Shown here: positions 48,029 through 64,000 of the stretch, piece by piece
How positions within the stretch are numbered: position 1 is the stretch's first letter
Layout of the letters: each line of letters opens with the position of its first letter
Translations under genes and position numbers: made by a program
The notes under the pieces: generated by a model
The model's database searches: none
Told to the model about the DNA's origin: nothing
What the model saw: only the letters and a program-made list of their open reading frames with translations
From: an uncultured Cytophagia bacterium
Lineage (GTDB): Bacteria; Zhuqueibacterota; Zhuqueibacteria; Residuimicrobiales; Residuimicrobiaceae
Direction of reading: 5' to 3'
NCBI GenBank assembly: GCA_964541895.1
Contig: CAZISM010000002.1
Location: 74,408 to 138,407 of the forward strand
Length of the DNA: 64,000 nt

Positions 48029-48075
48029 TTGTCAACCTTTGTCGACTCTCCGGTCCGCTATGCACAACGATAATG

Positions 48076-48423: not shown

Positions 48424-48560
48424 GCCTTTGCTGTCACAAAATAATTCTTTACTTTTTCAATCACAAGACATTTCACGATTTCGGAAATATTCGACATCAA
48501 TCTGAGTGTTTTAATACTAAAGTCATGCTGTATGTATGATCAACGGGAGGTTAGGAAAAG

Positions 48561-49259: not shown

Positions 49260-49630
49260 GCCTGCGGCAGATTAGCCGGCACGGCGAAAAATCGCTGCGC
49301 CCGCATCGTTTGCTGTGTACTCATGATCGATAAGGTAATAAGGTTTGCAACTTTTCTTGGTGGCTGCTATTAAGGTCTAAACATTGCTCAGCCGCGGTAA
49401 TTTTCGATGCCGGCGATAGATCGGTCTTTACAAAACAAACAGATGTTTTTTACCTTGGTAGCAGCAACGACCAACAGGAAAGACCTTATTGCCTTATTTT
49501 TTGCGAAACCGCTATCGGACGTGGTATACCGGGCAGCAGGACAGGTCTGAACTCCAAGGGTGAGAGAGTTGTACGGCACTGACAAAAATGATAAACCGCG
49601 ATTCTATCTGTGTACTCTGCGCTGTCTGCG

Positions 49631-49660
49631 GATAAAAAAACGGACGCTGGCAAGCGTCCG
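49631..49660 (-). terminator. intrinsic terminator closing the minus-strand cooS...rhodanese gene string
   Basis: Minus-strand reading: ggacgct-tgcc-agcgtcc (7-bp GC-rich stem, 4-nt loop) followed directly by TTTTTTTAT. It lies 10-40 nt downstream of the rhodanese-like stop (49670). Confidence 0.65.
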
Positions 49661-49669
49661 ATCCTGATC

Positions 49670-50335
49670 TCAACACCCTTCTTTTTTCTTCTTTCCCGTC
49701 GGCTTGCCGCCAGCCGACGAGCCGCCGCCGGGCAGCGCCAATTTGGGCATGGCCACTTGCGCTTGTTGTACCGCCTCGCCAGGACCACTCTGGGGCGAGC
49801 CGCCAAAATATTTGCTTACCTGTTTGCTTTTTTCGAATGCCTTTTGTTGTTCGGCTGAAGCGTTTTCGGCTATCCTGGGGAACAGAATTTTATCCTTCCA
49901 TTCCTCCAAACCCCCAAACAGGATATACACCGACTTGTAATCCTTGGCTTTGAGCAGGAACCAGGCCTGGGCGGCATGAATACCGCCTTCGGAGTAGATG
50001 ACGATTTTTTCGTTTCTCTGCAAGCCGGCGTTCAGCAGATTGGAAAGCACAATGTTTTCCGCCGTGGGGATATTGTACTCAGTGTATTCTTTTTCCGTGC
50101 GCAAATCGATCAGACGATAATCCGCTTTGTTCTGGATGATCCAGTCGGCCAGCTCTTCCACGGTCACATGATCGACTTTGCTGTCGACGATCATGGCCAG
50201 CTCCTGGGCGTCGATGGAGGTTCTGGCGCTGGAATAGGGATTGCCGGAGAACAGGGCCAGGACCGCCAGGATTAACAGAACGGCTGCGAGCTTTTGATTC
50301 AGGCTCAGATTCTTGATGCTATCCGTCAGCTTCAT
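49670..50335 (-). CDS. rhodanese-homology-domain protein, exported/membrane-anchored, catalytic Cys replaced by Ser, C-terminal -EGC
   Basis: 221 aa. N-terminal hydrophobic anchor LAAVLLILAVLALF. Rhodanese fold (YRLIDLRTEKEY...IPTAENIV...EKIVIYSEGGIHAAQAW...GGLEEWKD), but the active-site position (normally ...YC[RK]xGxR) reads YSEGGIH. Gly/Lys-rich tail ending KKKKEGC. Confidence 0.65.
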   Translation of the reverse strand: MKLTDSIKNLSLNQKLAAVLLILAVLALFSGNPYSSARTSIDAQELAMIVDSKVDHVTVEELADWIIQNKADYRLIDLRTEKEYTEYNIPTAENIVLSNLLNAGLQRNEKIVIYSEGGIHAAQAWFLLKAKDYKSVYILFGGLEEWKDKILFPRIAENASAEQQKAFEKSKQVSKYFGGSPQSGPGEAVQQAQVAMPKLALPGGGSSAGGKPTGKKKKEGC

Positions 50336-50943
50336 TGTTCCTCCGCCGATTTTTTCTCCGCCATTTTCTTTTCACCCCATTCGGCAGCGGCAAACGCCGC
50401 CAGGGCCATGATCGATACCAGAAAGACGATGAAACCGTAGGGCAGATTCAGCAATTGCGGCAATGTCACTTTGCCCAGCGAGGAAGATTCATAGAACGCT
50501 TCCACCAGGGGAAAGACTTCGCCGAAGGCAAGGATGCCGGCGACGATGCCGAGGAGGTAGACCCAGCCGTCATAGCGTCCGGTCGCCGCCGAAACGCAGG
50601 AGGTGCCCGGACAATAGCCGCCGATGACAAATCCCACGCCCAGCAACAGCCCGCCGACGATCTGGGGCCACAGGTAGGTCGGATTGATATAAACCAGCGA
50701 CAAATCGACAAAGCCGATGACGGAGAGATAATAGAGGCCGACCATGGCGGTGACGATGGCGGTGAACATTACTTTCAGCACGGCCATGTCGGTGAAATAA
50801 AACTGCGCCGCCAGTTTCCGGGCGCTGCCGAATCCGGCCCGTTCCAGAAAAAAACCGAAACCGATGCCGATCAGCACGGCGACGATGAGACTGACTTCAT
50901 CGTTAAAATAGCCGAATTTAAAATAGGGTGCGTTCATTGCCAT
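50332..50943 (-). CDS. YeeE/YedE family sulfur-compound transporter component (second half of a split pair)
   Basis: 203 aa, multi-TM. Hallmark GGYCPGTS motif. 4-nt overlap with the rhodanese-like gene, 10-nt overlap with the partner gene. Confidence 0.8.
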   Translation of the reverse strand: MAMNAPYFKFGYFNDEVSLIVAVLIGIGFGFFLERAGFGSARKLAAQFYFTDMAVLKVMFTAIVTAMVGLYYLSVIGFVDLSLVYINPTYLWPQIVGGLLLGVGFVIGGYCPGTSCVSAATGRYDGWVYLLGIVAGILAFGEVFPLVEAFYESSSLGKVTLPQLLNLPYGFIVFLVSIMALAAFAAAEWGEKKMAEKKSAEEQ

Positions 50944-51482
50944 TGTCTCCTTACCAGATATGCAAACGCATAACCGCCCGCAAACACGGACATCATAAAA
51001 GCCCAGCTGCCGAAATTAAGCAGCGCGCCGCCGGTGAGCGCCTGGCCGCTGGTGCAGCCCCGCGCCAGCTTGGCACCCACCGCCATGATCATGCCGCCGA
51101 GGAAGGCAAACATCAGCCGTTTGCCGCTGCTGATGCGCGGCCCTTTTTCGATCATTCCTTTGCTGCGATGCGCCAGTTTGCCGGAAATAAATCCGCCGAT
51201 GAACACGCCGAGCACTTCAAAAACCAGCCAATCCTTGAGCGGGTTGGTGGTGCCGTCACCGAGATATTCAGCGTAAAAGCTGTTCGAGTGGGCGTGTTCG
51301 GGGTTGGCCTTCTGCACACTATAAGCGACCATGGACGAGAAGGCCCCGGACGCTCCCAAACCTCTGCCCATGATGACAAAGGCGAGCAGGAGCACCAGCC
51401 CCAGCCCGATGCCGGCCAGATACGGATTCCAGTATGGTTGCGGAGCTTTGCCGGCCTCCGCAACATGTTGAGGTGAACTCAT
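50934..51482 (-). CDS. YeeE/YedE family sulfur-compound transporter component (first half of a split pair)
   Basis: 182 aa, multi-TM. Hallmark LARGCTSGQ motif. Confidence 0.8.
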   Translation of the reverse strand: MSSPQHVAEAGKAPQPYWNPYLAGIGLGLVLLLAFVIMGRGLGASGAFSSMVAYSVQKANPEHAHSNSFYAEYLGDGTTNPLKDWLVFEVLGVFIGGFISGKLAHRSKGMIEKGPRISSGKRLMFAFLGGMIMAVGAKLARGCTSGQALTGGALLNFGSWAFMMSVFAGGYAFAYLVRRQWQ

Positions 51483-51505
51483 AGTAATTCTCCCTTGGCA
51501 GGTTT

Positions 51506-52456
51506 CTATTTAACAAAGTGAGCGTTCACATAGTGACTGTATTGCCCGGCGCCAACGATGACAAAGCGCAGGATCAAGCCGCCGAGGATCACCAGCAGCG
51601 GCGCCACCGGCGTGTGTTTGACCAGGTGCCGGACGGACAGGGATTGGATGAGCAGGGGCACCAGAATGCCCATGAGGACGACAAAGACCCAGAACACGGC
51701 CGCATACGGCCCGTTCAACAAAAGTTTGGCGGATTGTATCTGCACTTCGGTGGAGCTGAGCAGGCCGATAAAAAACAGGGCAATGATCACCAGCTCGATG
51801 GAGAGAAACAGGTTGTCCGCTCTCGCCAGCATCTCGCTCTCCTTCCGGTCGCTGGCGATCATGTGCACCAGCGCAGAGGCGGTGGACAGTCCGGACACCA
51901 GAAAGAGAAGGCCCAGAATGGCGCTGTTCCATAAGGGGCGGGCGCCCAGAGCGCTGAGCAGAATGCCGGTGTAAATGCCGAGCATGATGCCGAGCACAAT
52001 GTTGGTCCAGCCGATGAGCGGTCGGATACCTCGCAGCGTGGAGAATTTTTCCGACCAGCTTTTCAGGACCGGCAACGGCGTTGCCAGCCATACCGGCACG
52101 TGCAGCATGAAATTGGCGGCAAGGGCAGGATACACCAGCAGCAGGATCCAGGCCCCCCAGGACATGGGCGATTTGATTTCGAACGTCGTGTACAATCGCC
52201 AGACGTAGAGCTTGTGTTCCAGATCCAGGAACAGGGCCAGCATGCCGAGGCTGAGAAGCACCAGGCCGATCAGGGGAATGCGATAGCAGATGCATTGGTA
52301 ATCCGCATCGCGTCCCTTGAGGAAAAAATATCCGGATACGATCATCATGCCGGCCACCAGGCCGCCCAGAAAAAGATAGAGCGGGATCTCCCAGCCCCAG
52401 ACATGGACGACCGGATCGATCATCTCGTTATGACGGGTTGACGTGAGTTCTGTCAT
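51506..52456 (-). CDS. NrfD/PsrC-family integral membrane subunit of a molybdopterin oxidoreductase (polysulfide-reductase type)
   Basis: 316 aa, about 8 TM helices. Conserved N-terminal WGWEIPLYLFLGGLVAG block of the NrfD/PsrC family. Confidence 0.8.
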   Translation of the reverse strand: MTELTSTRHNEMIDPVVHVWGWEIPLYLFLGGLVAGMMIVSGYFFLKGRDADYQCICYRIPLIGLVLLSLGMLALFLDLEHKLYVWRLYTTFEIKSPMSWGAWILLLVYPALAANFMLHVPVWLATPLPVLKSWSEKFSTLRGIRPLIGWTNIVLGIMLGIYTGILLSALGARPLWNSAILGLLFLVSGLSTASALVHMIASDRKESEMLARADNLFLSIELVIIALFFIGLLSSTEVQIQSAKLLLNGPYAAVFWVFVVLMGILVPLLIQSLSVRHLVKHTPVAPLLVILGGLILRFVIVGAGQYSHYVNAHFVK

Positions 52457-52468
52457 CTTGGCCTCGTA

Positions 52469-53026
52469 TTAGATCAGGTAGAATATGTGCGGTTGCGTTC
52501 CGGCCTCGCCGATGAGCGCGTGATGGTTGCGTTCGGCGAGCAGCTTGCTCACGGTGCTGTTGGCGTCCTCCACATCGCCGAAATACATACAATGGGTGGG
52601 ACACACAGAGACGCAGGCCGGGTCCAATCCCTGTTCGACGCGGTGGATGCAAAAGGTGCACTTGTCGGCGTAGCCGCCCGGATGGATAAAACGGGCGTCG
52701 TAGGGACAGGAAGCCAGACAGGCCTTGCAGCCGATGCAAAGCTCATGATGCACCAGCACCACACCACCGCGCTCATGAATGTGACTGGCGCCGGTGGGAC
52801 AGCAGTAGACGCAGGGCGGGTTGTCGCACTGGTTACACCGTTCAGAGCGGATCTCCATGTGCACCTTGGGGAATTTGCCCTTTGCTTCCGTGGTGATCCA
52901 GTCGCGATTAAACCCTTCCGGCACGCGATTTTCGGTCTTGCAGGCGACGACGCAGTCCATGCAGCCGACGCATTTCAACGTATCTATTACCATTGCGTAT
53001 CGCGCCATATCACGCCTCCAGCTCAA
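52469..53026 (-). CDS. 4Fe-4S ferredoxin-type electron-transfer subunit (PsrB/PhsB/NrfC-like)
   Basis: 185 aa with four Cys clusters (CVGCMDCVVAC, CNQCDNPPCVYCCP, CIGCKACLASCP, CTFCIHR...CVSVCP). Confidence 0.85.
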   Translation of the reverse strand: MSWRRDMARYAMVIDTLKCVGCMDCVVACKTENRVPEGFNRDWITTEAKGKFPKVHMEIRSERCNQCDNPPCVYCCPTGASHIHERGGVVLVHHELCIGCKACLASCPYDARFIHPGGYADKCTFCIHRVEQGLDPACVSVCPTHCMYFGDVEDANSTVSKLLAERNHHALIGEAGTQPHIFYLI

Positions 53027-55205
53027 TCGTCACAAAATTGACATTCATCGCCGTGCCTCCCATAAGCGGATCGACCGTATAGTCCGTGATGAGCTGCGCG
53101 TCGCTCGCGCCCTTGTTGTAGGCGAACTTTAACATTTTCGCATTGTGACCAAAGCCGTGGATCATATACACACAATCGGTGCGAATGCGCTCGGTGGCCT
53201 TGACCTTTACTCTGTTGCTGACAACGCCGTCCTGGTTTTTCAGGCGGATGTGATCGCCGCTTTTCAGGCCGTAGCGGTTGGCGATGTCCTGATTGATCCA
53301 CACTTCGTTTTCGTCGACCATATCCATCAAGATCCGGTTCGATTGGGTGCGGCTGAAGGAATGGACCGGCGTCCGGCCGTACAACAGGCGAAAATATCCA
53401 GGTGGCGGCTGCGGCGGTTGCTTGTATTTGGGCACAGGATCGAATCCCGCTTCTGCCAGCTGCAGCGAGTAGAACTCGATCTTTCCGGAGGGCGTGGGAA
53501 AGAGGTCGGCGACGCCTTCGCTGAAATAGATCGGCTGTTTCTCGCCGAGGATGATGCCCTCCTGTTTCAATTGCTCATAGCTCAAGCCGGCGGCATCCAG
53601 CCGCTGCTTGAAATAGTCTTCGATCGTCTCCCAGGGAAAATAGTGACCGAGGCCGAGTTTGTCGGCCAGATTTTTGGCGATCCACCAGTTGGGCTTTTGA
53701 TCGTGAGGCGGTTTCACCGCCGGCTGTCGCAGGGCGACAAACGGCTCGCGGAACCATTCCACATTCAGATCGTCGTGTCGTTCCAGGTACACGGACTCGG
53801 GCAGGATCACGTCCGCCCAGCCGGCTATCTCTGCAGGTATGACATCAATCACCACCAGCAGATCGAGATTTTTGATGGCTTGAAGGGTCTCTTCTTCATT
53901 GGGCAGGGCGTGAATCAGATTGGTGGCATACACCATCCACCCTTTGATGGGATAGGGCTTGCCGGTGATCGTAGCCTCCCGGATACCGGTCGTGATGGTC
54001 TCGTGGGCAAAAGGATATTTTTTGTTTGGATTATCGACCTTGCCCCTGTTCGAATGCGGGTACTCGGGATAAGGATAGGCGGGGACATCCATGCTCACGG
54101 GATAGTAAAAGCCGCCTTTGACGCCCCAGTTGCCCATGAGCGCATTGAGCAGGGCGATGGCCCGCGATCTTTGGGTGTCGTCGCCGTACCAGGTGACGTG
54201 TCGACCGGGATGGATGAGCGTGGCCGGTTTGTACCTGGCCATTTCTCTGGCCGTGGCGCGGATCAATTCCGGCTCGATGCCGGTTTCCGGATAGGCCCAT
54301 TCCGGGGTGTAGGGGAGGATTTCGTTTCTGAAATTTTCAAAGCCAAAGCCGTACTTGTCGACGTATTCCCTGTTGTAGAGGTTTTCCGTGACCAGGACAT
54401 TCATCCACGCCAGCAGCAGGGCCAAATCGGCACCGGGTTTGATGGGCAGATAGTATTTGGCTTTGCCGGCGGCTACCGACAGGCGCGGATCCACGACGAT
54501 AAGGCTGGCTTTATTTTCAAGCGCATGACTGAACTCCTGCACCTGCGTGTTGTGCATGTTCTCCCCGAGGTGCGAGCCGATCAGCACCAGACATTGGGCG
54601 TTCCGGATGTCGGTTCGTTCCGGAGAGCTCACATCCTCGCCAAAGGTCAGCTTGAAACCCACGTCCCGCGGACCCCGGCATTGGGCGAAGGAGGGCGCTG
54701 AAATATTGGCAGAGCCATAGGCTTTGAAGGTGTGTTTAAGAAAGTTGCCGCCGATGCCGTGGCTAAAGAGCGCCATGGCTTCCGGGCCATGCTCAGCCTT
54801 GATTTTTATCATTTTATCGGCGATAAAAGTGAGGGCTTCTTCCCAGGAGACTGCGGTCCACTGCTCTTCGCCGCGCACAGATTTGCGCAGCAGCGGTGTT
54901 TTCAGGCGATCGGGATCGAAATGGGCGCCGACGCCGCCGGTACCGCGCGGACAGAGCCGGCCGCGGCTGAGCGGGTCGAGCGGATTGCCCTCCACTTTCC
55001 ACAAGGTGCCGTCCTGAACGTAGGCGATGGCGCCGCATTTCCAGAAGCAGATGTCACAAAACGTCGGAATTTTTTGCAGCCCTTTGGCCGGCTTTTCCGT
55101 GGTCGACGTCTCAGCCGCTGTTCCCAGAGATCCGCTTGCCGCGGCGGCTGCCGCCACCGAAACGCCACCAATTTTTAAGAACTTGCGCCTTGAAATGGTA
55201 TCCAT
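53010..55205 (-). CDS. molybdopterin (bis-MGD) oxidoreductase catalytic subunit with Tat signal, PsrA/PhsA (polysulfide/thiosulfate reductase)-type
   Basis: ORF 53010..55259. The internal ATG at 55203-55205 is preceded by GGTGGAG and starts MDTISRRKFLKIGGVSVAAAAAASG (twin-arginine). N-terminal FeS motif C-x2-C-x3-C...C (FCDICFWKCGAIAY...RGRLCPRGTG) as in PsrA/PhsA. Large MopB domains. 17-nt overlap with the FeS subunit gene. Confidence 0.8.
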   Translation of the reverse strand: MDTISRRKFLKIGGVSVAAAAAASGSLGTAAETSTTEKPAKGLQKIPTFCDICFWKCGAIAYVQDGTLWKVEGNPLDPLSRGRLCPRGTGGVGAHFDPDRLKTPLLRKSVRGEEQWTAVSWEEALTFIADKMIKIKAEHGPEAMALFSHGIGGNFLKHTFKAYGSANISAPSFAQCRGPRDVGFKLTFGEDVSSPERTDIRNAQCLVLIGSHLGENMHNTQVQEFSHALENKASLIVVDPRLSVAAGKAKYYLPIKPGADLALLLAWMNVLVTENLYNREYVDKYGFGFENFRNEILPYTPEWAYPETGIEPELIRATAREMARYKPATLIHPGRHVTWYGDDTQRSRAIALLNALMGNWGVKGGFYYPVSMDVPAYPYPEYPHSNRGKVDNPNKKYPFAHETITTGIREATITGKPYPIKGWMVYATNLIHALPNEEETLQAIKNLDLLVVIDVIPAEIAGWADVILPESVYLERHDDLNVEWFREPFVALRQPAVKPPHDQKPNWWIAKNLADKLGLGHYFPWETIEDYFKQRLDAAGLSYEQLKQEGIILGEKQPIYFSEGVADLFPTPSGKIEFYSLQLAEAGFDPVPKYKQPPQPPPGYFRLLYGRTPVHSFSRTQSNRILMDMVDENEVWINQDIANRYGLKSGDHIRLKNQDGVVSNRVKVKATERIRTDCVYMIHGFGHNAKMLKFAYNKGASDAQLITDYTVDPLMGGTAMNVNFVTIELEA

Positions 55206-55284
55206 GAATGCTCCACCATTGTGATACATCGCGAAAAGTCCATGTTTCCAAAAAGACACTAAAATTAATTATACCTGCACCCAT

Positions 55285-55998
55285 TCACAAGCGCAAAGTG
55301 CAAAAACCGTCGAGGCCTTCATCACATTGCTGGCCCAGTTTCTTATAGTCATCAGGACTGTTCATGTTAAAAAACAGTTCATCTTTATAGAACGGCAGAA
55401 GATGAGCTTCGAAAATCTCTGTTTCGACAGCTGCAAACAGGTTGCGGAAAGAGCGAAAGCCGTGTTGCGGCGGAGCGGCGAGAATCTTATCGATGGCGGG
55501 CAAGGCCCCTTTGTGATAACGCCCGGGCAACGGCTGCAAAAAACCGGCTGCGCGGCAGATGACGATGGATCTTTCGGAAGGCAAAGCGGCGATATGTGCC
55601 AGCATCTCCCTGCTCATGCGCGGCAGGTCGCAGGAGATGACCAGATTGGCATCGGTCCTGGAATGCAAGAGAGCGGCATGGAGGCCCGCCAGCGGACCTG
55701 CATCCTGGTACACGTCTGCCACCTTGGGCAGCTGCAGAAAAGCCATTTCCTCTACAGAGTTGGTGCTGAGAATGACTTTAGAGAATAGGGATGACATCAA
55801 ATCGACAATGATCTCGATGACCGTCTTGTCGCCGATTTTAAGAAGGGATTTGTTGGTGCCCATGCGGCTGTTTTTGCCGCCGCTGAGAACGATGCCAGTG
55901 ATGTCAGAGTGCACAGTTGATGACGGTGTGAATTGGGCTGGTGACCAGAGTCGGTTTCGATTCCACGCTGCCGAATCCTTTTTTATGGTTAGATGCAT
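55285..55998 (-). CDS. mobA: molybdenum cofactor guanylyltransferase
   Basis: The core aligns with E. coli MobA: ITGIVLSGGKNSRMG (cf. ITGVVLAGGKARRMG), AGPLAGL (cf. PGPLAGM), ISCDLPRMS (cf. CPCDTPYIP). The ORF has a 30-aa N-terminal extension, so the true start may be internal. Confidence 0.75.
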   Translation of the reverse strand: MHLTIKKDSAAWNRNRLWSPAQFTPSSTVHSDITGIVLSGGKNSRMGTNKSLLKIGDKTVIEIIVDLMSSLFSKVILSTNSVEEMAFLQLPKVADVYQDAGPLAGLHAALLHSRTDANLVISCDLPRMSREMLAHIAALPSERSIVICRAAGFLQPLPGRYHKGALPAIDKILAAPPQHGFRSFRNLFAAVETEIFEAHLLPFYKDELFFNMNSPDDYKKLGQQCDEGLDGFCTLRL

Positions 55999-56109
55999 GA
56001 CCGATCAAAAGGATGCAGAGGAGTGATCATGTATGGCCATGCTCTGAGCGGCGCCCGTTCAGAGTTCACGTTTAGCGGGCCGGGGCGGGGACGTATCCTG
56101 AAACGGGCT

Positions 56110-56337
56110 TTATTTTTTCACAATCCTGCCCACACACGTGTTCGCCGATTTGCACCAATCGGTACAGGACAAATTCAGACGCGGATTCAACACCTCTTTT
56201 TTGCACTGCGGACATGTACGCATGGGCTCGTCTTTCCAGAATTCGATTTCAGTCTGGCACCCAGGACAGGCGATGTCGTAAATATCTTCGGGCTTCCAAC
56301 TGCGCATATCCTGACCGGGACAACGGGGCTCGTTCAT
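56110..56337 (-). CDS. small Cys-rich zinc-ribbon protein (75 aa), unknown function
   Basis: MNEPRCPGQD...ACPGCQTEIEF...CPQCKKEV...CTDWCKSANTC. Three CxxC-type pairs. 4-nt gap to RACo upstream. Confidence 0.45.
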   Translation of the reverse strand: MNEPRCPGQDMRSWKPEDIYDIACPGCQTEIEFWKDEPMRTCPQCKKEVLNPRLNLSCTDWCKSANTCVGRIVKK

Positions 56338-56341
56338 CGGT

Positions 56342-58258
56342 TCATCCTCTACGATCAGCGGTTGTTCTCTGTGCGCTCGGAAACAGGTTGCTGTTGGTAT
56401 GCGGCAAAAAGAGCGCCCCTGTGTACTGATTCATATAGCCGGGTTTGACCGAGAGATCTATATAAGTCATCTTTCTGGCCAACTGCAACTGCTTTTCTCT
56501 GTATTCCTGTGAGACCAGTACCATAAACGCGCCGCTCAGCGATGAATTGCCGATGTAGGCGAACCTGGCCCTGTCCAGGTCCGGCAGCAGGCCGATACAG
56601 ATGGCTTTTTCAATATCAAGAAAGCGACCAAAGCCGCCGGCAATATAGACCTGCTGCAGGTCACTGAAATTCAGGCCGGTCTGCTCCAGCATGACCGCAA
56701 TGGCGGAAAAAATAGCCGCCTTGGCGCGCAGAATGTTTTCGATATCCGCTTCGCTGATGGTGATGGCCTGGCCGATGCCGCTCTGCTCTTCCGCTGCGAT
56801 GACATAGACTGCCTGACGGCCCTGAATCCGGATCGCCGGCGAAGGTTTGCTGCGATTCAGTTTGCCGGCGGCGTCGATCCAGCCGGACATGAACAGTTCA
56901 GCCAGCAGGGAGATCATGCCGGAGCCGCAAATGCCCCTGGGCAATACATGCCCGATGGTCTGATAGGCGGCCACGCCGGTTTCCCTGTCCACTTCCACTT
57001 TTTCTATGGCGCCCAGCGAGGCGCGCATGCCGAATTCGATGCCGCCGCCTTCAAAGGCCGGTCCGGCCGAACAAGCGCAGGTCATGAGAAAATCGCTGTT
57101 GCCGATCACCATTTCGCCGTTGGTGCCGATATCGATGAACAGATTGATGCCTTCCGCATCAGCGGCCATATCGGTGCAAAGCAGGCCGGAGGTGATGTCA
57201 CCGCCCACATAGCTGCCGACGGCCGGTGCCATGTATACCCATGAATTTGGATTTATTTCCAGGCCAATTTCCCTGGAGGTGAAATAATGCGCCTCCAACA
57301 GCGTCGGTGTGTACGGATCCAGGCGGAGATATTCCGGATTCAAGCCCAGCAACAGGTGGATCATGGTGGTGTTGCCGGCTACCACGGCGTTGCTGATCTC
57401 TTTGGGATCCACACCGTGTGCCCGGCACACCTGCTCCACCAGCGCATTGATGGTTTTCAGCACCCGCCGCTGCAGCTCCTGCAACCGTGCCGGTGTGCGC
57501 GCATAATTGATGCGACTGATAACGTCCAGCCCGCACGCCACCTGATCGTTATAGGCCGTGCGCGTGGCGATGATGCGCGCCAACGGCAGAAACACCAGCT
57601 GCACGGCGACGGTGGTGGTGCCGACGTCAATGGCGATGCCATAGTGCCGCGTCGTCTGATTGCCGGGCTCTACGTCGACGATATAATAGCGCTGCGATGA
57701 ACGTACCAGCGTAATGGTAACCTGGCCATCCTGTTGTCGTAACACTTGGGCGATTTTTTGGATCACCGGCAGGGCATAGTGAAACTCCACCTTGCCCCAC
57801 TCTTTTTGCACCGTGCGCGTCAATCGCTCCAGATCGGAGAGGCCGTCTTCCAATTGCGGAGGCGGCACCTGTACCAGCCATTTCAGCGTCAGCGGATCGT
57901 ACTGCCACTCTTTGGGAAAGAGCTCCTTTCGAATCAGCAGCTGCGAATCGGTTTCGTCGATAAACTGGCCGCCGTCCCGACTCGCCTGCGCCGGAATCTC
58001 GATAACAACGGGTTTTTCAAGCACACGGGTCTTGCAGGCCAGCACATGGCCGTCGCTCAACGCCGAGCCGGACAATATGCCCTGGCTGTTGGAATCCACC
58101 TCCCCGCTTTTGACATGCACAATGCAGTTGCCGCAGGTGCCTTTGCCGCCGCAGGAGAGATCCACCTCGATGTCGGCCAGACGCATGGCATCGAGAAGCT
58201 CTGTGCCGTCTGTTACGCTGATAGTTTTGCCTAAAGGCAGAAACGTGATCACCGGCAT
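56342..58258 (-). CDS. reductive activator of the corrinoid iron-sulfur protein (RACo/AcsV-type: N-terminal plant-type 2Fe-2S ferredoxin plus ASKHA ATPase domain)
   Basis: 638 aa. N-terminus PVITFLPLGKTISVTDGTELLDAMRLADIEVDLSCGGKGTCGNCIV (2Fe-2S ferredoxin CGG.G.CG.C), then a long ASKHA/DUF4445-type body. 1-nt gap to acsC. Confidence 0.8.
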   Translation of the reverse strand: MPVITFLPLGKTISVTDGTELLDAMRLADIEVDLSCGGKGTCGNCIVHVKSGEVDSNSQGILSGSALSDGHVLACKTRVLEKPVVIEIPAQASRDGGQFIDETDSQLLIRKELFPKEWQYDPLTLKWLVQVPPPQLEDGLSDLERLTRTVQKEWGKVEFHYALPVIQKIAQVLRQQDGQVTITLVRSSQRYYIVDVEPGNQTTRHYGIAIDVGTTTVAVQLVFLPLARIIATRTAYNDQVACGLDVISRINYARTPARLQELQRRVLKTINALVEQVCRAHGVDPKEISNAVVAGNTTMIHLLLGLNPEYLRLDPYTPTLLEAHYFTSREIGLEINPNSWVYMAPAVGSYVGGDITSGLLCTDMAADAEGINLFIDIGTNGEMVIGNSDFLMTCACSAGPAFEGGGIEFGMRASLGAIEKVEVDRETGVAAYQTIGHVLPRGICGSGMISLLAELFMSGWIDAAGKLNRSKPSPAIRIQGRQAVYVIAAEEQSGIGQAITISEADIENILRAKAAIFSAIAVMLEQTGLNFSDLQQVYIAGGFGRFLDIEKAICIGLLPDLDRARFAYIGNSSLSGAFMVLVSQEYREKQLQLARKMTYIDLSVKPGYMNQYTGALFLPHTNSNLFPSAQRTTADRRG

Positions 58259-58259
58259 G

Positions 58260-59597
58260 CTAATTCAATCCTGCACGAATATAGCTTTCCAGGTCCGCCA
58301 CCTCTTGTGGTCCCACCAGCACTTTCCATCCCGGCAGGTTCTCTTCCAACTCGCCGCTGATCTGCGCCACATAACCGGGGATGATGATTTTTCTCGAGGT
58401 GACCTGTTCATTCAGACCTATCTCTTTGGCGAATTTGCCGATCACGGCGCCGGAGAATTTGCCCGCGGCCCAGGCGGTCAATACACTCATGCCTTCGCAC
58501 TCGGGCACCAGCAGCCAGGCATTGACCCCGCAGTTTTCAATCTCGCCGGAGACGATGAAATAGGTCAGAGAGAAATTGGTGGTGACAAAGACCGGCGAAT
58601 CCGGTTTGGGCTCGCCGATGGCGTACAGCTTGGGCTCTACCTGAATAGGCTTTTGTGGATCGGTGAACAGATTGAGCCGAAGGGTCAGCAGCGTCGCCAG
58701 CTGAGCCGTATCGAAATGGGACAGTACGCAGATGCCGCCGTATTTGCAGATTTCGTTCAGGGCTGATACGGTGTTTTCCAGCAGATCGCCGGCCGGAACG
58801 AAATGGATGCCGGGATATCCCAACGGTTTAAAGGCATCTTTGATGGCGGCACGGCGGGCGATGGAATTGATCTGGAACCGTTCTGCCAACGACATGGTCG
58901 GTAATTGCAGAATCAGACGATCAAAACCCGACTCTTTGAGGCGACTGGTCAGAGCGACCAGACCGTTCAGATCCGGCGCCGTGACCACCAAGGCGTGTTC
59001 CTGCTCTTTGGCCGCTTGCACCAGTTTATCCGCGCTGGCTTCATCTGCCTGGTAGAGCACGCTGCGCGAGTCCGGCACGGCGCAGCCGGCCGCGATCAGC
59101 GCTTCTGCATCCGGGCTGCGCAGTATCATCGGCTTTTGTACGGTCGCCCAGCATTTTTTGACCAGGTCGATATAGCGCTGCGCATCGCCGCTTGTTTGCG
59201 TGACCGCCACCATGTCGATGCGAAGGGTTTCGCCGACGCGCTCCAGAACATAATTCTTGACGTTGTCCAGCACGGTATCGATGGTCTGCGCCGGATCCGT
59301 GTCGTTGATGTTGACGGCGATGGCCGTTTTGTTGACAAATGTTTTTTCGTGCCGATACAGCACCGATTCGTCGCCCAGCTTGACGGATTTGTCCCTGCCC
59401 AGTTCGATGATTTTAACCGGCGGTTCCGCCGCTGCGCCCAGGACCTGCTTCGCTTCTTCGGAAGCGTAGGGACAGGCCGAAAGCTCGGCGCGTTTGGCAG
59501 CCAGCTTCATGGCAAAAGCGAGACAGGTGTTGGAGCCGCACTCTTTACAATTGGTTTTCGGCAACAGTTTTTGTATTTGCAGGCCGGTAAGTGCCAT
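58260..59597 (-). CDS. acsC: corrinoid iron-sulfur protein large subunit
   Basis: 445 aa, collinear with Moorella AcsC: MALTGLQIQKLLPKTNCKECGSNTCLAFAMKLAA...SACPY (cf. MPLTGLEIYKQLPKKNCGECGTPTCLAFAMNLAS...DSCPY), TNFSLTY, IIPGYVA...GWKVLVGPQEVADL. Confidence 0.85.
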   Translation of the reverse strand: MALTGLQIQKLLPKTNCKECGSNTCLAFAMKLAAKRAELSACPYASEEAKQVLGAAAEPPVKIIELGRDKSVKLGDESVLYRHEKTFVNKTAIAVNINDTDPAQTIDTVLDNVKNYVLERVGETLRIDMVAVTQTSGDAQRYIDLVKKCWATVQKPMILRSPDAEALIAAGCAVPDSRSVLYQADEASADKLVQAAKEQEHALVVTAPDLNGLVALTSRLKESGFDRLILQLPTMSLAERFQINSIARRAAIKDAFKPLGYPGIHFVPAGDLLENTVSALNEICKYGGICVLSHFDTAQLATLLTLRLNLFTDPQKPIQVEPKLYAIGEPKPDSPVFVTTNFSLTYFIVSGEIENCGVNAWLLVPECEGMSVLTAWAAGKFSGAVIGKFAKEIGLNEQVTSRKIIIPGYVAQISGELEENLPGWKVLVGPQEVADLESYIRAGLN

Positions 59598-59656
59598 AGA
59601 CTTCTTCCTCCATCCGGGTCCGGTGTTCCGGGTTATATACCGCTCTCAGATTCGGC

Positions 59657-62600
59657 TTAGGCCGATTTGGTTTGATCCATCAAATCGGCAATGGTTTTCT
59701 TTATGGCTGCTACGGCGCGCGGATTGTACATGATCAGAATATCGGCGCCGGCGTACAGAAACGAAACCGATGTGGTCAGTTCCCACAACGCGGCGCGATC
59801 CGCCAATTCGCCCCAGGCCGGAAACTCGGCGGCCGTTGCTTTGGTCTCTTTAATCTTGGCGCATTCCGGTCCGGGCGAAACAATCATCGGGCCGGCCAGC
59901 ATGCGGTCGCCGTTGAGCGCAGTGAGGCGGATACGTTCCATGACCGAATAGGTGTACTCGATGCCATAGCCGGTGGCGCCGGTCATGGGATCCATGATGA
60001 TCTGCTCCGGCTTGACGTCCATGTTGGTGAGCAGGATGTTCATCTGCTTGGCGATATTGACGTCGATGGGGCTCTGCGAAATCAGGACGTGGCCGTACGC
60101 CAGCGCCGCACCGGCGATGGTGCGGTAATTGTCCTGTTCCACCCAGTTCAACAGCAGCCGTTCGCCGCGGCAGGCCTGGGCGACGGCTTTAAGTACTTGA
60201 TTGTTTTTATCGAAATGGCTGTGGCCGGTGATGATCAGCGGCACCGGCACCGCGGCCAGCACCTGTTTGACCAGGTCCACGGCCTGCTCCGCGGTGCGGT
60301 CGCCCTTTTCCGGATGGGTGCCGTCCAGACGAACGCTGATCAGATCGGCGCCGTATTTTTCCACGCACACCCTGGCCATCTCGGCCGGCTGATGCAACAG
60401 GTCTCCATACACTTCGCGCAAGACCTGCGGATATTTTTCGCTCACCACGTCAAAGACCTCCATGGCCACCAGAGGTCGATACGGCATCTCGCCTTCCCAG
60501 AGATGGAACGGCATGCAGGTTTCGCCGCCCACGATGCAGGTTTTGCCGCGCGTGCCGCCCTCTGCGGTGGTGGCGCCCAGTTGGACTTGCCACACCGGCA
60601 CTTCACATTTCTCTTTTCTGATTTCAAAAGCCTGCACGCGACGGAGCCGTTCTGCAGCGCTGGGTGCCGGCGGCTTTGCCACGATCACCGGGGCAGCAGC
60701 GGCCATCACCGGCTCGGCCGCCGGTTCCGATTTTATGCCCAGAAACCTGGCATTGAGGGTGCCGACGATTTCGCCGACTATCTCCCGGGTAATCGATTCT
60801 TTTAATTCGCGCGCCAGTTCCTGTTTCAAGTGTTCCAGTTGTTCGCGTGTCACTTGTCGTTCCTCCGCAGCAGGTGTGCTTGTGGCCGGTTGTTCCGGAA
60901 CGTGCGCCGCTTTCGTCGGTTCTTCTGTGGCCGCGGCCGGTTGCGGCACGCCGGCCGATTTGCTGTAATTGCTCATGTCCTCCATGGCCAAAGCCGGATG
61001 GCCGTTTTTCTCAAGCTCCTGGCGGACCTGGATCGCATCAATGGCGATCGTTTCGTCGATGATTTTGTCCAGCAGATCCGGCGCATTCTGTTCGTTGAAT
61101 CGTTTCTGCAAATCGTCGGCCAGCAGCGTCTTTAACTCTTTGGTCATCCACACCAGCCGCTTGTGTCCGCCCTCGGCAAAGAGAAATTTTTTCGAAGTCA
61201 AAAAGACTTTGCCGCAGCCCATGAACCCCGGCGTTTGCAAGCCACCACCGACGTTTCCGGCCAGGGAGGAAAAGGTCATGCCCACCGGCGTTTCGCCCTG
61301 GTATTCGCGGTTGACCACCATGACGCCGTTGCATTCCGGCAGATAGGCGCAGATCACTTCAAAGCAGCCGCAACTGGTCATGGGATTGTTCATGATCGAA
61401 TAAGCGGAAAAGCTCTGGATGGTTTTGTGACTGTTGATATAGACGTAATCGTCCACGCCCTGCCAGACGCCGCGTACCGGATCCATGCATTCGCTTTTCT
61501 TGATGGGCTGGTTAGGCCCGGTTTCGTCGATTTCGAACGCCGCCTTGCCGTCCAGCCAGTTATAGGCGCCGCACAGACCCAGACGCTCCGGGGTGATGAC
61601 GCAGACGTGGTTGGGGGCAAAGGATTGGCAGAGCAGACAGGAGTAAAACGTGTCCACTGCATCGTCGGTCATGGATTCCAGACGTCGGTTGCGTTCGTCG
61701 TAAACTTTGCGGGCGATCGCCAGCCGCTCCCGCACCAGCGCTTCATCGGTAATCATGGTGACTTGCACTTTGTCGACGATAGCGGGATAGTCGGACAGAA
61801 ATTTGGCATGAATGATTTCGCCATAGTGACGCAGACGCAGGCCGCGGCTAAAGCCCTGTTTGGAGACGCGCGTCCAGACGATGTCGCGCTGTCCCATATG
61901 CCAGATGCCTTCGGCGCCGTTGATGAGGTGATGGATCTGTCGCTCCAGGATAGGCTCGAAATCCGGCTGCATCTTGCGGCCGGCCACTTCCACCCAGATA
62001 GCCAGTGGCAGCACATCGCCTTCCTGGATGGCGTCTATGTCCGGGCCGATGATGTTGATCTCGCCGTCGTTGATCTCGTCCAGCTCTTTCGAGGTCACAA
62101 ACTCAAAGGCCATGGTTTTGTTGCCGCCGAATTCGACGTGGGCGTCGGTGCGGCGGATTCGTTCGCCTTCAAAGGCCGGGCCGTATGAAACCGGAATCGG
62201 CACGTGGGTGATTTTTATTTTACAGCCGCGCACCTCCAGCGCCTTGTCCACCATGACCTCGTGCGCCACGTTGGCCACCACGTGTTCGTAGGTGCAGACG
62301 CCGGTGGGCAGGATTTCCGGAATATCCGTATCGGCGATGACCGGGAAACCGTAATTGATGGCGCCGGCGGCGGCCGCATATTTTTCCGCCGACACTTGGC
62401 CCAACGCGAGCACAAAGGCAAAAATGCGATTCTTGTTGTATTTCAGGTTTTTGGCAAAATCACCAGGCTTGACCCCGCCAAAGGAGAGGGCCGCACGATT
62501 GGCAAAACCCAGGGCATACACCAGAGCGGAGACGTCCTTGCCGAACGGAACCAATCGGGTTTCCCAACCCAATTGCACGCCTTCTTCGGCCAACTGTTCG

Positions 62601-63148
62601 GCAAACTGTTTGCCGTTCAGGCTGCCGCCCATGAACACATAAAGATTTTTCTCCTGCAGTTCGCGCGCTATCTTGACGGCAATGGCGTTGGTCGGCGCGG
62701 CGCCGGTGATGGCGGCGAATCCGGGTGCGGTGCCGTCCACGAATTCAATGCCGCGCTCGCGCATGATGAGATCGCTGGCAGCACCCAACCAGATCCCGTC
62801 CACCGGATGCGGACCGATCACGTATTTGCACGCTTCAATAATTTCGCAGGCAAACAGCGCGGCCACACCGGCGTCGAGCGTGTTGCCCAGGTAAGGCAGC
62901 CAAACGTTTTCCGACGGCCGTTCCGGCAAATAGGATTTGGCTGTTTTCAGAATAGCGGCGAGGTCCCTGAGGGTTTCAGCTTTTTCGCCGGTAAAGGAAT
63001 AGATGATGGGAAGGTAATAGGCGGTATCCGGAAATCCAACTTTGCAGGATTCACCTTTGGCCTGAATGGCGGCGTGCAGTTTCTCTTCCGCTCTGGCCAC
63101 CCACTCGACCGCGCCGTCGATGGCGCTGCTGCAGATGATCTTAGACAT
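59657..63148 (-). CDS. acsB: acetyl-CoA synthase (AcsB) fused in-frame to the CoFeSP small subunit (AcsD) via an Ala/Pro/Glu-rich linker
   Basis: Single uninterrupted 1163-aa ORF. Residues 1-730 align with Moorella AcsB (VGFPDTAYYLPIIYSF, A-cluster motif SCGCFE, GKVFLTSKKFLFAEGG). About 110 aa of linker (...PAAEPVMAAAAPVIVAKPPAPSAAER...). The last 320 aa align with Moorella AcsD (GGTRGKTCIVGGETCMPFHLWEGE, EKYGADLISVRLDG, IDVNIAKQMNILL, GYGIEYTYSVMERIRLTAL). Start ATG overlaps the cooS stop (ATGTCTAA). Confidence 0.85.
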   Translation of the reverse strand: MSKIICSSAIDGAVEWVARAEEKLHAAIQAKGESCKVGFPDTAYYLPIIYSFTGEKAETLRDLAAILKTAKSYLPERPSENVWLPYLGNTLDAGVAALFACEIIEACKYVIGPHPVDGIWLGAASDLIMRERGIEFVDGTAPGFAAITGAAPTNAIAVKIARELQEKNLYVFMGGSLNGKQFAEQLAEEGVQLGWETRLVPFGKDVSALVYALGFANRAALSFGGVKPGDFAKNLKYNKNRIFAFVLALGQVSAEKYAAAAGAINYGFPVIADTDIPEILPTGVCTYEHVVANVAHEVMVDKALEVRGCKIKITHVPIPVSYGPAFEGERIRRTDAHVEFGGNKTMAFEFVTSKELDEINDGEINIIGPDIDAIQEGDVLPLAIWVEVAGRKMQPDFEPILERQIHHLINGAEGIWHMGQRDIVWTRVSKQGFSRGLRLRHYGEIIHAKFLSDYPAIVDKVQVTMITDEALVRERLAIARKVYDERNRRLESMTDDAVDTFYSCLLCQSFAPNHVCVITPERLGLCGAYNWLDGKAAFEIDETGPNQPIKKSECMDPVRGVWQGVDDYVYINSHKTIQSFSAYSIMNNPMTSCGCFEVICAYLPECNGVMVVNREYQGETPVGMTFSSLAGNVGGGLQTPGFMGCGKVFLTSKKFLFAEGGHKRLVWMTKELKTLLADDLQKRFNEQNAPDLLDKIIDETIAIDAIQVRQELEKNGHPALAMEDMSNYSKSAGVPQPAAATEEPTKAAHVPEQPATSTPAAEERQVTREQLEHLKQELARELKESITREIVGEIVGTLNARFLGIKSEPAAEPVMAAAAPVIVAKPPAPSAAERLRRVQAFEIRKEKCEVPVWQVQLGATTAEGGTRGKTCIVGGETCMPFHLWEGEMPYRPLVAMEVFDVVSEKYPQVLREVYGDLLHQPAEMARVCVEKYGADLISVRLDGTHPEKGDRTAEQAVDLVKQVLAAVPVPLIITGHSHFDKNNQVLKAVAQACRGERLLLNWVEQDNYRTIAGAALAYGHVLISQSPIDVNIAKQMNILLTNMDVKPEQIIMDPMTGATGYGIEYTYSVMERIRLTALNGDRMLAGPMIVSPGPECAKIKETKATAAEFPAWGELADRAALWELTTSVSFLYAGADILIMYNPRAVAAIKKTIADLMDQTKSA

Positions 63149-64000
63149 CCAGTTCTCTCCTGTCTTTCATATCGTACAATTTCCGCTCCGTCTTTTTGTT
63201 GATACCTAATTTTTCTCTGGATCGATCCAGCAATTCCATGATTTTGTCGAACGCTTCATGTGGATCCTGGCAAACGTGGAAGGAGCCGCCAAACAAGTTG
63301 GTGGCCTCTTCATTAAGAAACCGGGTCACGTTGTCAGAGCCGGAAATATGGAAGGGATGGCCGAGGATGACATCCACGCCGGAGGCGACGAAATAGCAGC
63401 CGATGGCTATGGCTTTTTCACTCATCCACTCCGGTGCCACGCCCACGGCGGGAATCTGCGACAGGTCGTCGCCCAGTCCGCCTTCCAGCACCACCTCGGT
63501 AGCAGCTTCGAGAATACGCGCATTGTCAACGCAGCTGCCCATGTGCAGAATGGGCGGGATGCCCACCGCTTCACACACCTCGCGCAACCCCTGCCCGGCC
63601 TGCTCGAGGGCGGTTTCAGGCAGCAGCATGCCTTCCTTGGCCGAAGCGATGGCGGCGCAGCCGGTTTTTAATACCAGGACATTGTTTTCGATCAGTTTTT
63701 TAGTAAGCGTGTTGACATAGTATTCCAGCTGTTCCTTGGGATTGCTGCAGCCGACAATGCCCACCAACCCTTTGATGCGGCCCTGGATGATGGCGTCATT
63801 CAACGGCCGGAAGGAGGCCCGAAAGCGGCCGCCCAGCATATACTTGATGGCATCGACGCTAAAGCCGGCCACCAGGGGCTTTACGCCGGCGGGAATGGCT
63901 ACTTTTTTCGGATCACGATTTTTAAAATTATCTACAGCCCGTTTGACAATGGCTTTGGCGGAGAGCAGCGCGTCATCTTCGTCGAACAGATGCTGTACCG
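63141..64000 (-). CDS. cooS: anaerobic carbon-monoxide dehydrogenase catalytic subunit, C-terminal part (5' end outside the window)
   Basis: Manual minus-strand translation from the window edge gives ...VQHLFDEDDALLSAKAIVKRAVDNFKNRDPKKVAIPAGVKPLVAGFSVDAIKYMLGGRF... with no stop codon. It continues into the listed ORF (GIVGCSNPKEQ, GMLLPETALEQAG, IPPILHMGSCVDNARI, IAIGCYFVASGVDVILG), the conserved C-terminal region of Ni-CODH CooS/AcsA. Confidence 0.8.
   Translation of the reverse strand, partial: VQHLFDEDDALLSAKAIVKRAVDNFKNRDPKKVAIPAGVKPLVAGFSVDAIKYMLGGRFRASFRPLNDAIIQGRIKGLVGIVGCSNPKEQLEYYVNTLTKKLIENNVLVLKTGCAAIASAKEGMLLPETALEQAGQGLREVCEAVGIPPILHMGSCVDNARILEAATEVVLEGGLGDDLSQIPAVGVAPEWMSEKAIAIGCYFVASGVDVILGHPFHISGSDNVTRFLNEEATNLFGGSFHVCQDPHEAFDKIMELLDRSREKLGINKKTERKLYDMKDRRELDV

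Follow-up and report, generated by a model that had tools for sequence, protein, structure and literature searches.

Introduction

Does a run of twelve genes that all point the same way, and that brings together an enzyme complex of the Wood-Ljungdahl pathway and a sulfur-reducing molybdoenzyme, represent one operon or two? The question is raised by positions 49,631 to 64,000 of a 64,000-nucleotide (nt) stretch of DNA from an uncultured Cytophagia bacterium of the family Residuimicrobiaceae (assembly GCA_964541895.1, contig CAZISM010000002.1), which is referred to as a whole as the window. On the minus strand, genes for carbon monoxide dehydrogenase/acetyl-CoA synthase (CODH/ACS) and a small Zn-ribbon protein (the acs module) are followed by mobA and by a cassette encoding a reductase of the polysulfide/thiosulfate reductase (Psr/Phs) type, two half-size YeeE/YedE proteins, and a rhodanese-like protein (the psr module). 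A preliminary description of this sequence proposed one transcription unit directly linking CO/acetyl-CoA metabolism to sulfur respiration, with two units split at the mobA gap as a hedged alternative. A single operon would imply that regulation ties the Wood-Ljungdahl enzyme complex directly to sulfur respiration, in a lineage known for neither.

We consider it probable that the string consists of two independent, well-known modules that stand head to tail in one narrow lineage, because none of 165 loci anchored on one module or the other shows the linkage, because the spacer between the modules varies in length and promoter-like motifs are conserved upstream of mobA and psrA, and because close relatives have the Zn-ribbon gene as the last of the acs module. 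In our assessment, the string is a local gene-order quirk and not evidence of a new coupled pathway; it would represent ordinary neighboring operons, whose co-directionality and short gaps alone overstated the linkage. Both modules are known, and their adjacency is new as far as the literature search could find: no description of it turned up in the literature searched.

Results

Loci anchored on either module

Gene identities, order, and strand were derived from the map of open reading frames (ORFs) and from Pfam and NCBIfam scans of the window, which bore out the twelve co-directional minus-strand genes as they had been listed before (Table 1). Long plus-strand ORFs within the region of the string gave no Pfam match.

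To one side, the comparison was anchored on PsrA, a protein whose close homologues number in the thousands. Species-representative genomes were scanned with it and yielded 80 loci (68 to 85% PsrA identity) with record titles naming Ignavibacteriota, Bacteroidota, Chlorobiaceae, Acidobacteriota, Gemmatimonadota, Opitutales, KSB1, and others, and all twelve window proteins were run by tblastn against these and five further contigs, 85 loci in total. The genes psrA-psrB-psrC-yeeE-yeeE-rhd occur in one order and on one strand in 65 of the 85 loci, representing at least six phyla, across which PsrA identity ranges from 68 to 89%. Nearly all remaining loci are cut by contig ends, the exceptions being L019 and possibly L037. 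No cooS, acsB::D, acsC, or RACo gene lies within 10 kb in any of the 85, of which 68 include 3 kb or more of upstream DNA. Relatives with 84 to 85% PsrA identity have unrelated upstream genes in their annotated neighborhoods.

On the other side, a metagenome scan with the AcsB::D fusion yielded 80 contigs (59 to 75% identity), in most of which the fusion was matched over nearly its full length and among which the order cooS-acsB::D-acsC-RACo is the rule. In none of these 80 loci, 31 of which reach at least 2.5 kb past RACo, did we find mobA, psrA, psrC, yeeE, or rhd. Across the relatives, the two modules occur independently of each other. The closest acs clusters outside the junction lineage are found on three long contigs with 79 to 80% RACo identity, one of them from a metagenome-assembled genome at NCBI titled Ignavibacteriae, and are arranged in the order MeTr, a gene of 356 to 358 amino acids (aa), cooC, cooC, cooS, acsB::D, acsC, and RACo. 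A gene of 73 or 75 aa is called immediately after RACo in two of the three (L168 and an 81-kb contig of the Joint Genome Institute [JGI], the latter with a 75-aa gene). Likewise, Zn-ribbon homologues were found by tblastn right after RACo in L167 and L168 (70 to 72% identity; in L167 by tblastn only, 71%), as well as after RACo in L143, L161, L162, and L165 and elsewhere near acs in other contigs. The genes beyond the acs cluster in the three long contigs are unrelated, comprising a KaiC-like ATPase, a TonB-type receptor plus a fucosidase, or opposite-strand ORFs. Since unrelated genes come next in these close relatives, the Zn-ribbon gene is, by this comparison, the last gene of the acs module. 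The 73- to 75-aa Cys-rich protein that recurs at the ends of acs clusters falls outside any curated family.

The junction of the two modules was seen only in L169, L170, and one 11,282-bp contig of JGI sample 3300075153, all of them very close relatives of the window. L169 and L170 are JGI contigs from other samples that were reached by a MobA search. L170 shows the order acsC, RACo, Zn-ribbon gene, 257-nt gap, mobA, and psrA, and L169 the order Zn-ribbon gene, 257-nt gap, mobA, full cassette, and an opposite-strand 232-aa gene, as at 48561-49259 of the window. The 11,282-bp contig carries acsB::D (partial), acsC, RACo, a 74-aa gene, a gap, mobA, psrA, psrB, and psrC, with identities to the window of 95% for RACo and 89% for PsrA. 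RACo has its closest database homologue in P0122 (95%). In L169/L170, identity to the window amounts to 90.5% for AcsC, 92% for RACo, 83 to 84% for the Zn-ribbon protein, 74% for MobA, 88 to 89% for PsrA, 92% for PsrB, 90% for PsrC, 90% and 95% for the YeeE halves, and 86% for the rhodanese-like protein. At the nucleotide level, L169/L170 are 80 to 86% identical to the window in the main aligned blocks, and the alignment breaks within the spacer between the Zn-ribbon gene and mobA, which measures 195 nt in the window, 257 nt in L169 and L170, and at least 394 nt in the 11,282-bp contig. Judged from these relatives, the adjacency is inherited inside one narrow clade of roughly genus level and is absent one level of relatedness further out.

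Gene starts and the spacers between genes

The extent of the gaps depends on the choice of start codons. The start of psrA at ATG 55205 yields the twin-arginine translocation (Tat) motif SRRKFLK and a product equal to the 731-aa database protein P0001, so that the mobA-psrA spacer is 79 nt. Most likely, mobA starts at GTG 55914 and not at ATG 55998: the 28-codon extension up to the latter contains a 1-nt insertion/deletion and a stop codon in L169 and L170, the JGI gene call begins at the equivalent GTG, and MobA homologues are mostly 197 to 213 aa long. This start puts about 195 nt between the Zn-ribbon gene and mobA rather than the 111 nt of the preliminary description, in which this was the one larger gap. 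With homology-supported starts there are three larger gaps, of 59 nt (acsB::D-acsC), 195 nt, and 79 nt, and the range of 1 to 25 nt given for the other separated junctions fails for the first and the last of these. The supposed 17-nt overlap of psrA and psrB rests on a TTG start; ATG 53008, which has GGAGG just before it and coincides with the onset of homologue conservation, is most likely the true start of psrB and leaves a 1-nt spacer. The overlaps of cooS and acsB (8 nt, ATGTCTAA), of the two YeeE halves (10 nt), and of YeeE and the rhodanese-like gene (4 nt) stand as described, as does the hairpin followed by T7 at the end of the string (8-bp stem at 49660-49641, T7 next), which is the sole strong terminator and comes after the last gene.

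The stretch from the Zn-ribbon gene to mobA is free of canonical terminators; a GC-rich stem that follows the stop codon there lacks a U tract. Compared with shuffled sequence, the folding of this spacer is not significant (z = -1.4 for the window and +0.5 for L170), and we claim no terminator there. Few gene ends carry canonical terminators in a scan of 30000-49700, so that the missing one after the Zn-ribbon gene constitutes weak evidence for read-through.

The window and L169/L170 share a conserved block of about 110 nt immediately before mobA, although it is not conserved as coding sequence. It includes an element that reads TTGATC-N17-TAAAAA in the window and TTGACA-N17-AAAAAT in the sister contigs; the pattern TTGAYM-N17-WAAAAW is matched twice in the window, against 0.17 matches expected. 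A different pattern, CTTGW-N19-TAHTTTT, has a single match in the 64-kb window (0.08 expected), located upstream of psrA. It recurs 76 to 84 nt upstream of the psrA ATG in all of L001 to L009, these nine sites accounting for 9 of the 12 plus-strand matches in 1.44 Mb of locus DNA, and is also found in L166, L169, and L170, which brings the total to 12 related loci plus the window. Both conserved motifs may be promoters or operators, and the psr module most likely has its own promoter(s), upstream of mobA and of psrA.

A Bacteroidetes-type promoter class was considered for these motifs and rejected, the pattern TTG-N17-23-TAnnTTTG not being enriched (one window match against 2.7 expected). Rfam models at gathering thresholds matched nothing in the whole window, and no tRNAs were found; a permissive Rfam search of 55100-56400 yielded no molybdenum cofactor riboswitch and only a chance-level snoRNA match (E = 0.52). 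The spacer further contains a 51-nt GC-rich element with the palindrome GCGCGTTAAAACGCGC, which is present as one degenerate copy in the window (around 56050-56100) and as a tandem duplication in both sister contigs, L169 and L170 (L170, 3576-3626 and 3656-3706).

Genes upstream of psrA

The position directly upstream of psrA is taken by mobA only in the closest relatives (L001 to L009, L051, and L166); in other PsrA loci, mobA lies downstream or a few kilobases off. Near psr in many loci and never found in acs-anchored loci, mobA appears to belong with the psr module. Its product is Pfam positive, and the NCBIfam MobA models match it below their cutoffs.

In L001 (6336-9256) and L166 (306-1941), which have 85% PsrA identity, co-directional genes precede mobA, namely, two or three genes without a Pfam match (396 aa, in L001 only; about 205 and 186 aa) and an NTPase_1/DUF2478 gene. 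The annotated acs-psr string of the window lacks them, and they may encode further Mo-cofactor or maturation factors. In 24 other loci (including L012, L016, L021, and L023), the gene directly upstream of psrA is co-directional with it and encodes a MerR-family regulator of about 148 aa whose C-terminal half is Cys rich; it lies within about 30 nt of psrA in most of the loci listed and at 210 nt in L013. The MerR-like MROS_1773 of Melioribacter roseus (PMC5492636) fits this pattern.

The CODH/ACS proteins

The acs module has the components of a bacterial CODH/ACS operon, with the AcsB domains, AcsC, AcsD, RACo, and cooS immediately upstream of acsB. The respective parts of the fusion score 1,032 bits with the AcsB model NF040764 (cutoff, 800) and 380 bits with the AcsD model NF003376 (cutoff, 280), AcsC scores 501 bits with NF003195 (cutoff, 306), and RACo matches all four Pfam domains and scores 677 bits with the NCBIfam AcsV exception model, below its cutoff of 800. 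The cooS fragment is 88 to 92% identical to the 647-aa full-length cooS of L167 and L168.

Within the fusion, AcsB and AcsD are joined by a low-complexity Pro/Ala/Glu-rich linker (about aa 730 to 860). The fusion is not peculiar to the window genome, as it is found in at least 80 metagenome contigs (59 to 75% identity) and in the three long contigs; a literature search for an AcsB-AcsD fusion found nothing relevant. Genes of the URO-D family, which also takes in MtaA-type methyltransferases, are present in the window at 10611-11846 (+) and 36943-38055 (+), and another lies near the L167 acs cluster at about 21714-21923. Their products might supply the corrinoid pathway with methyl groups, or they may be unrelated to it.

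The reductase and its substrate

Along its full length, PsrA of the window shares 47% identity with Thermus thermophilus PsrA (PDB 2VPW; E = 1e-217), and the Mo-ligand Cys173, His145, and the Arg-His pair of the Thermus enzyme are conserved. A Tat signal, Fe4S4 and Mo-bis-pyranopterin guanine dinucleotide (Mo-bisPGD) domains, the Cys ligand, and adjoining PsrB and NrfD subunits are all present, as in Psr/Phs complexes. The Salmonella-type PhsA model of NCBIfam (NF012032) gives 496 bits, under its cutoff of 694, indicating that the protein is not a PhsA equivalog, and the ArrA and TtrA models give 154 and 67 bits, respectively. On this basis the catalytic subunit is a member of the Psr/Phs (sulfur) group. 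All 18 Cys residues of PsrB are conserved in at least 95% of 80 aligned sequences, and PsrC has no sequence match to any PDB chain.

Previous work bears on the function of such cassettes. A phsABC-pmpA/B-sulfurtransferase cluster has been described in "Candidatus Electryonea clarkiae," Caldithrix abyssi, and "Candidatus Lernaella stagnicola," where it includes a PmpA/B-sulfurtransferase fusion; its function was left open, and thiosulfate stimulates growth of C. abyssi, with production of sulfide (Williams et al. 2022, PMC9324843). The Psr/Phs-type protein MROS_1774 of Melioribacter roseus, preceded by the MerR-like MROS_1773, is strongly arsenate induced and has been proposed to be a respiratory arsenate reductase (Gavrilov et al. 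2017, PMC5492636). Psr operons that include a rhodanese-type sulfurtransferase are well known (PMC12142623; Srr operon, PMC12481199). The cassette loci and MROS_1774 probably form one orthologue group. Candidate substrates of the cassette are thiosulfate or polysulfide on the one hand and arsenate on the other.

The YeeE halves and the rhodanese-like protein

The Sulf_transp domain is present as two half-size proteins with one conserved Cys each, which is the arrangement of the PmpAB subtype. The Cys in ARGCTSGQ of the PmpA-like half and that in GGYCPGTS of the PmpB-like half are conserved in at least 95% of 69 and 68 aligned sequences, respectively. Both halves score far below the NCBIfam TsuA and YedE cutoffs, and a half-YeeE protein compared with the PDB gave no sequence match.

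The last protein of the string has the rhodanese fold, with a Pfam score of 58.6 bits and matches to rhodanese-family proteins in the PDB (including 6MXV, E = 2e-9). At the active-site position, which was located by comparison with the GlpE sequence and not by a tool alignment, 49 of the 64 rhodanese-like homologues have Ser, as does the window protein, and the others have Gly (9), Ala (5), or Cys (1). Because the catalytic Cys is missing from the active-site loop, the window protein is best described as a rhodanese-homology domain and not as a canonical rhodanese. The C-terminal end reads [KR]3+-EGC in 63 of the 64 homologues (KKKKEGC in the window), and its Cys is the only one in most of them; L075, the single homologue with an active-site Cys, is also the single one without this tail. 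This pattern suggests that a C-terminal swinging-arm Cys took over from the usual active site. The protein has a hydrophobic segment at its N terminus, and from the distribution of charges its rhodanese domain is predicted to be periplasmic.

In-frame fusions of the second half-YeeE gene with the rhodanese-like gene occur in six loci (L062, L066, L072, L073, L081, and L085; Opitutales and Acidobacteriota by title), giving proteins of 420 to 427 aa that are encoded at about 14300-15500 in each locus (about 9675-10830 in L073). These fusions argue that the half-YeeE and the rhodanese-like protein act as a physical complex.

Other features of the window

Convergent with the end of the string lies a 232-aa ORF (48561-49259, +) without a Pfam match. 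It is conserved in L169 (6892-7590, -; 80% nucleotide identity) and hence probably represents a real gene; the competing minus-strand ORF at 48800-49324 is probably spurious. Named homologues of the window proteins indicate that the host is probably an Ignavibacteria-like bacterium of the FCB group; literature on Ignavibacteria and the Wood-Ljungdahl pathway, as far as searched, yielded nothing relevant to this lineage. Positions 1-48028 form a glycan utilization region with sulfatases (18204-19781 and 25778-27598), an arylsulfotransferase (46655-48028), GH97, GH36, GH127, GH116, and apiosidase-like enzymes, an L-arabinose isomerase, and sugar transporters, which suggests that the host is a degrader of sulfated polysaccharides that also carries CODH/ACS.

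Table 1. Features of the gene string in transcription order (positions in the window)
Feature	Positions	Strand	Basis and remarks
cooS/acsA, CODH catalytic subunit, partial	63141-64000	-	Pfam Prismane, E = 1e-60; C-terminal 285 aa only, cut by window end
acsB::acsD fusion, acetyl-CoA synthase plus small corrinoid Fe-S protein subunit, 1163 aa	59657-63148	-	CODH_A_N, CdhC, ACS_CODH_B_C, CdhD
acsC, large corrinoid Fe-S protein subunit	58260-59597	-	NCBIfam NF003195; Pfam FeS, CdhD
RACo/AcsV, reductive activator of corrinoid protein	56342-58258	-	Pfam Fer2, RACo_linker, Raco_middle, RACo_C_ter
Cys-rich Zn-ribbon protein, 75 aa	56110-56337	-	Weak Zn_ribbon_8 match
Noncoding spacer between both modules	55915-56109	-	GC-rich hairpin without U tract, promoter-like element
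Promoter-like TTGATC-N17-TAAAAA upstream of mobA	56008-55980	-	Block conserved between window and L169/L170
mobA, molybdenum cofactor guanylyltransferase	55285-55914	-	Pfam NTP_transf_3, E = 8e-29
Promoter-like bipartite CTTGT-N19-TAATTTT upstream of psrA, overlapping mobA stop codon	55261-55291	-	Motif scan
psrA/phsA-type Mo-bisPGD catalytic subunit, Tat-exported, 731 aa	53010-55205	-	Molybdop_Fe4S4, Molybdopterin, Molydop_binding
psrB, four-cluster ferredoxin subunit (4x[4Fe-4S])	52469-53008	-	Fer4_11 and related Pfam models
psrC, NrfD-type quinol-oxidizing membrane anchor	51506-52456	-	Pfam NrfD, E = 1e-40
PmpA-like half-YeeE, C-terminal half of YeeE/TsuA	50934-51482	-	Pfam Sulf_transp, profile positions 176-309
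PmpB-like half-YeeE, N-terminal half of YeeE/TsuA	50332-50943	-	Pfam Sulf_transp, profile positions 1-162
Membrane-anchored rhodanese-homology protein	49670-50335	-	Pfam Rhodanese, 58.6 bits (cutoff, 22.2)
Intrinsic terminator closing the string	49634-49660	-	8-bp stem with 6 G-C pairs, 4-nt loop, T7

Discussion

The proposal that one transcription unit directly links CO/acetyl-CoA to sulfur respiration is not borne out by the PsrA-anchored loci (0 of 85), the AcsB::D-anchored loci (0 of 80), or the variable spacer, and the comparative evidence favors the more cautious version, in which two units are split at the mobA gap. The preliminary description had let its proposal hinge on the phylogenetic group of the catalytic subunit and on the occurrence of the neighborhood in relatives. 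The former part stood, in that the subunit falls in the Psr/Phs sulfur group, and the latter did not, the neighborhood being absent from all but the very closest relatives.

Several observations weigh against two independent modules. The junction survived the divergence of at least three related lineages, which fits selection as well as simple inheritance. As no canonical terminator separates the Zn-ribbon gene from mobA, transcription from the acs promoter could read through, and the cassette of the window clade lacks the MerR-like regulator of 24 other loci, mobA occupying that position. In addition, the promoter motifs were defined post hoc from the data and could be operator sites, their promoter function being predicted.

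Taken together, such observations might be read as pointing to a single transcription unit or regulon that couples CODH/ACS acetyl-CoA metabolism to thiosulfate/polysulfide respiration. The co-directional genes, the 195-nt spacer without a canonical hairpin-plus-U terminator, a strong terminator only after the last gene, the retention of the junction in at least three related lineages, and a cassette without an adjoining regulator gene of its own in this clade would all fit such a unit, and organisms with both the Wood-Ljungdahl pathway and Psr are known (PMC12142623). However, we consider it quite unlikely, as the linkage is missing from 165 loci and also from the closest acs clusters outside the junction lineage, the spacer differs in length between contigs and evolves through insertions and deletions, mobA and psrA are each preceded by a conserved promoter-like motif, and the cassette works in many lineages in psr neighborhoods free of acs genes. 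A related scenario, which we likewise hold to be improbable, is that the cassette both lost a MerR-type regulator and came to lie directly behind the acs operon by capture, where read-through would co-express acetyl-CoA metabolism and periplasmic sulfur-compound reduction. If true, the bacterium would oxidize acetate or CO through CODH/ACS with thiosulfate or polysulfide as electron acceptor. The boundary between the modules could also be drawn one gene further downstream, with mobA as the last gene of the acs operon that supplies the bis-molybdopterin guanine dinucleotide (bis-MGD) cofactor to a formate dehydrogenase and psrABC-pmpAB-rhd alone as a separate unit. This would agree with the position of the psrA promoter-like motif after mobA and with the lower identity of MobA in the sister contigs (74% and 64%) compared with the cassette proteins of L169/L170 (86 to 95%) and PsrA of the 11-kb contig (89%). 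It is nonetheless highly improbable, given that mobA lies directly upstream of psrA in L001 to L009, L051, and L166 with no acs genes nearby, is near the cassette in many further loci and in none of the 80 acs-anchored ones, and is separated from the Zn-ribbon gene by a 195- to 257-nt spacer with a conserved promoter-like block.

Another issue is whether the cassette acts on sulfur compounds at all. If its main activity were the reduction of a different oxyanion (arsenate, tetrathionate, or selenite, for example), the interpretation of the string in terms of sulfur would be wrong. Such a role is suggested by the arsenate induction of MROS_1774 and the MerR-like gene before it (PMC5492636), considering that 24 cassette loci have a MerR-like Cys-rich regulator and that Melioribacter loci carry the cassette. 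Similarly, Psr of Shewanella ANA-3 plays a part in tetrathionate respiration (PMC12949373), the operon of the selenite reductase Srr encodes Psr-like subunits together with rhodanese-domain proteins (PMC12481199), and the PhsA model score remains below its cutoff. On the other hand, the best solved relative is Thermus PsrA, with conserved active-site residues, and the scores with the ArrA and TtrA models are far lower. The obligatory partners, YeeE/PmpAB and a rhodanese fold, are sulfur-trafficking families, and C. abyssi, which has a homologous cluster, shows thiosulfate-stimulated growth and produces sulfide (PMC9324843). We therefore regard a different main substrate as unlikely.

For the reading that we prefer, two modules lying side by side, the following mechanism can be envisaged. 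Module 1 would be the 3' end of a CODH/ACS operon that synthesizes or cleaves acetyl-CoA. MobA would make bis-MGD for module 2, in which PsrA would be exported via Tat, presumably carrying along PsrB, as in other Psr/Phs enzymes, PsrB having no signal sequence of its own. PsrC would oxidize menaquinol and pass electrons via the Fe-S clusters of PsrB and PsrA to the Cys-ligated Mo, and the Mo center would reductively cleave the S-S bond in thiosulfate or polysulfide. The half-YeeE pair might form a PmpAB-type heterodimeric channel that moves sulfur species over the membrane, and the rhodanese-like protein probably carries sulfane sulfur on its C-terminal Cys, at the end of a Lys-rich flexible tail, between substrate, PsrA, and channel. 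The KKKKEGC tail and the occasional fusion to a half-YeeE suggest in this respect a sulfur relay on a C-terminal swinging arm. The psrABC-pmpAB-rhodanese cassette is very widespread and highly conserved, and both the cassette and its rhodanese-like component may be of use to specialists in sulfur metabolism.

Relation to known systems

The acs module shares its components with the usual cluster of acetogens (Moorella thermoacetica/Carboxydothermus type: acsA/cooS, acsB, acsC, acsD, acsE, cooC, and RACo). In contrast to that operon, the window has acsB and acsD as one 1163-aa gene, a variant that is common in metagenomes, and a small Zn-ribbon gene after RACo.

For the reductase, the closest structural reference is T. 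thermophilus PsrABC (2VPW), with which the window shares the PsrA match, the active-site residues, a four-cluster PsrB, and an NrfD-family anchor; the solved Thermus complex is devoid of YeeE halves and a rhodanese-like protein, and PsrC of the window remains unmatched to PDB chains. The cluster of Williams et al. (PMC9324843), set alongside by description, has the gene content and order of the window (a Tat-exported catalytic subunit, an Fe-S subunit, NrfD, two half-YeeE proteins, and a sulfurtransferase). The missing catalytic Cys and the KKKKEGC tail receive no mention there, and the window differs in having mobA directly upstream and the cassette behind an acs operon. Two Melioribacter loci in our set (L042 and L067) likewise have the same six-gene cassette, with 71 to 72% PsrA identity; compared with the MROS_1774 locus of M. 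roseus, the window clade has mobA and not a MerR gene upstream.

With respect to the TsuA/YeeE family (PMC11582611), the window halves fit PmpA (C-terminal half, equivalent of Cys293) and PmpB (N-terminal half, equivalent of Cys91). They are longer than PmpAB (182 and 203 aa versus about 130 aa), and their partner is the rhodanese-like protein and not TsuB/YeeD.

The association of a Psr enzyme with a rhodanese-fold protein, finally, has a parallel in Wolinella succinogenes, where PsrABC is accompanied by the periplasmic polysulfide-sulfur transferase Sud. Sud works via an active-site Cys. Its structure (PDB 1QXN) is a weak sequence match to the rhodanese-like protein of the window (E = 0.002), which differs from it in having a Ser at the active-site position, a membrane anchor, and a Cys at the C terminus.

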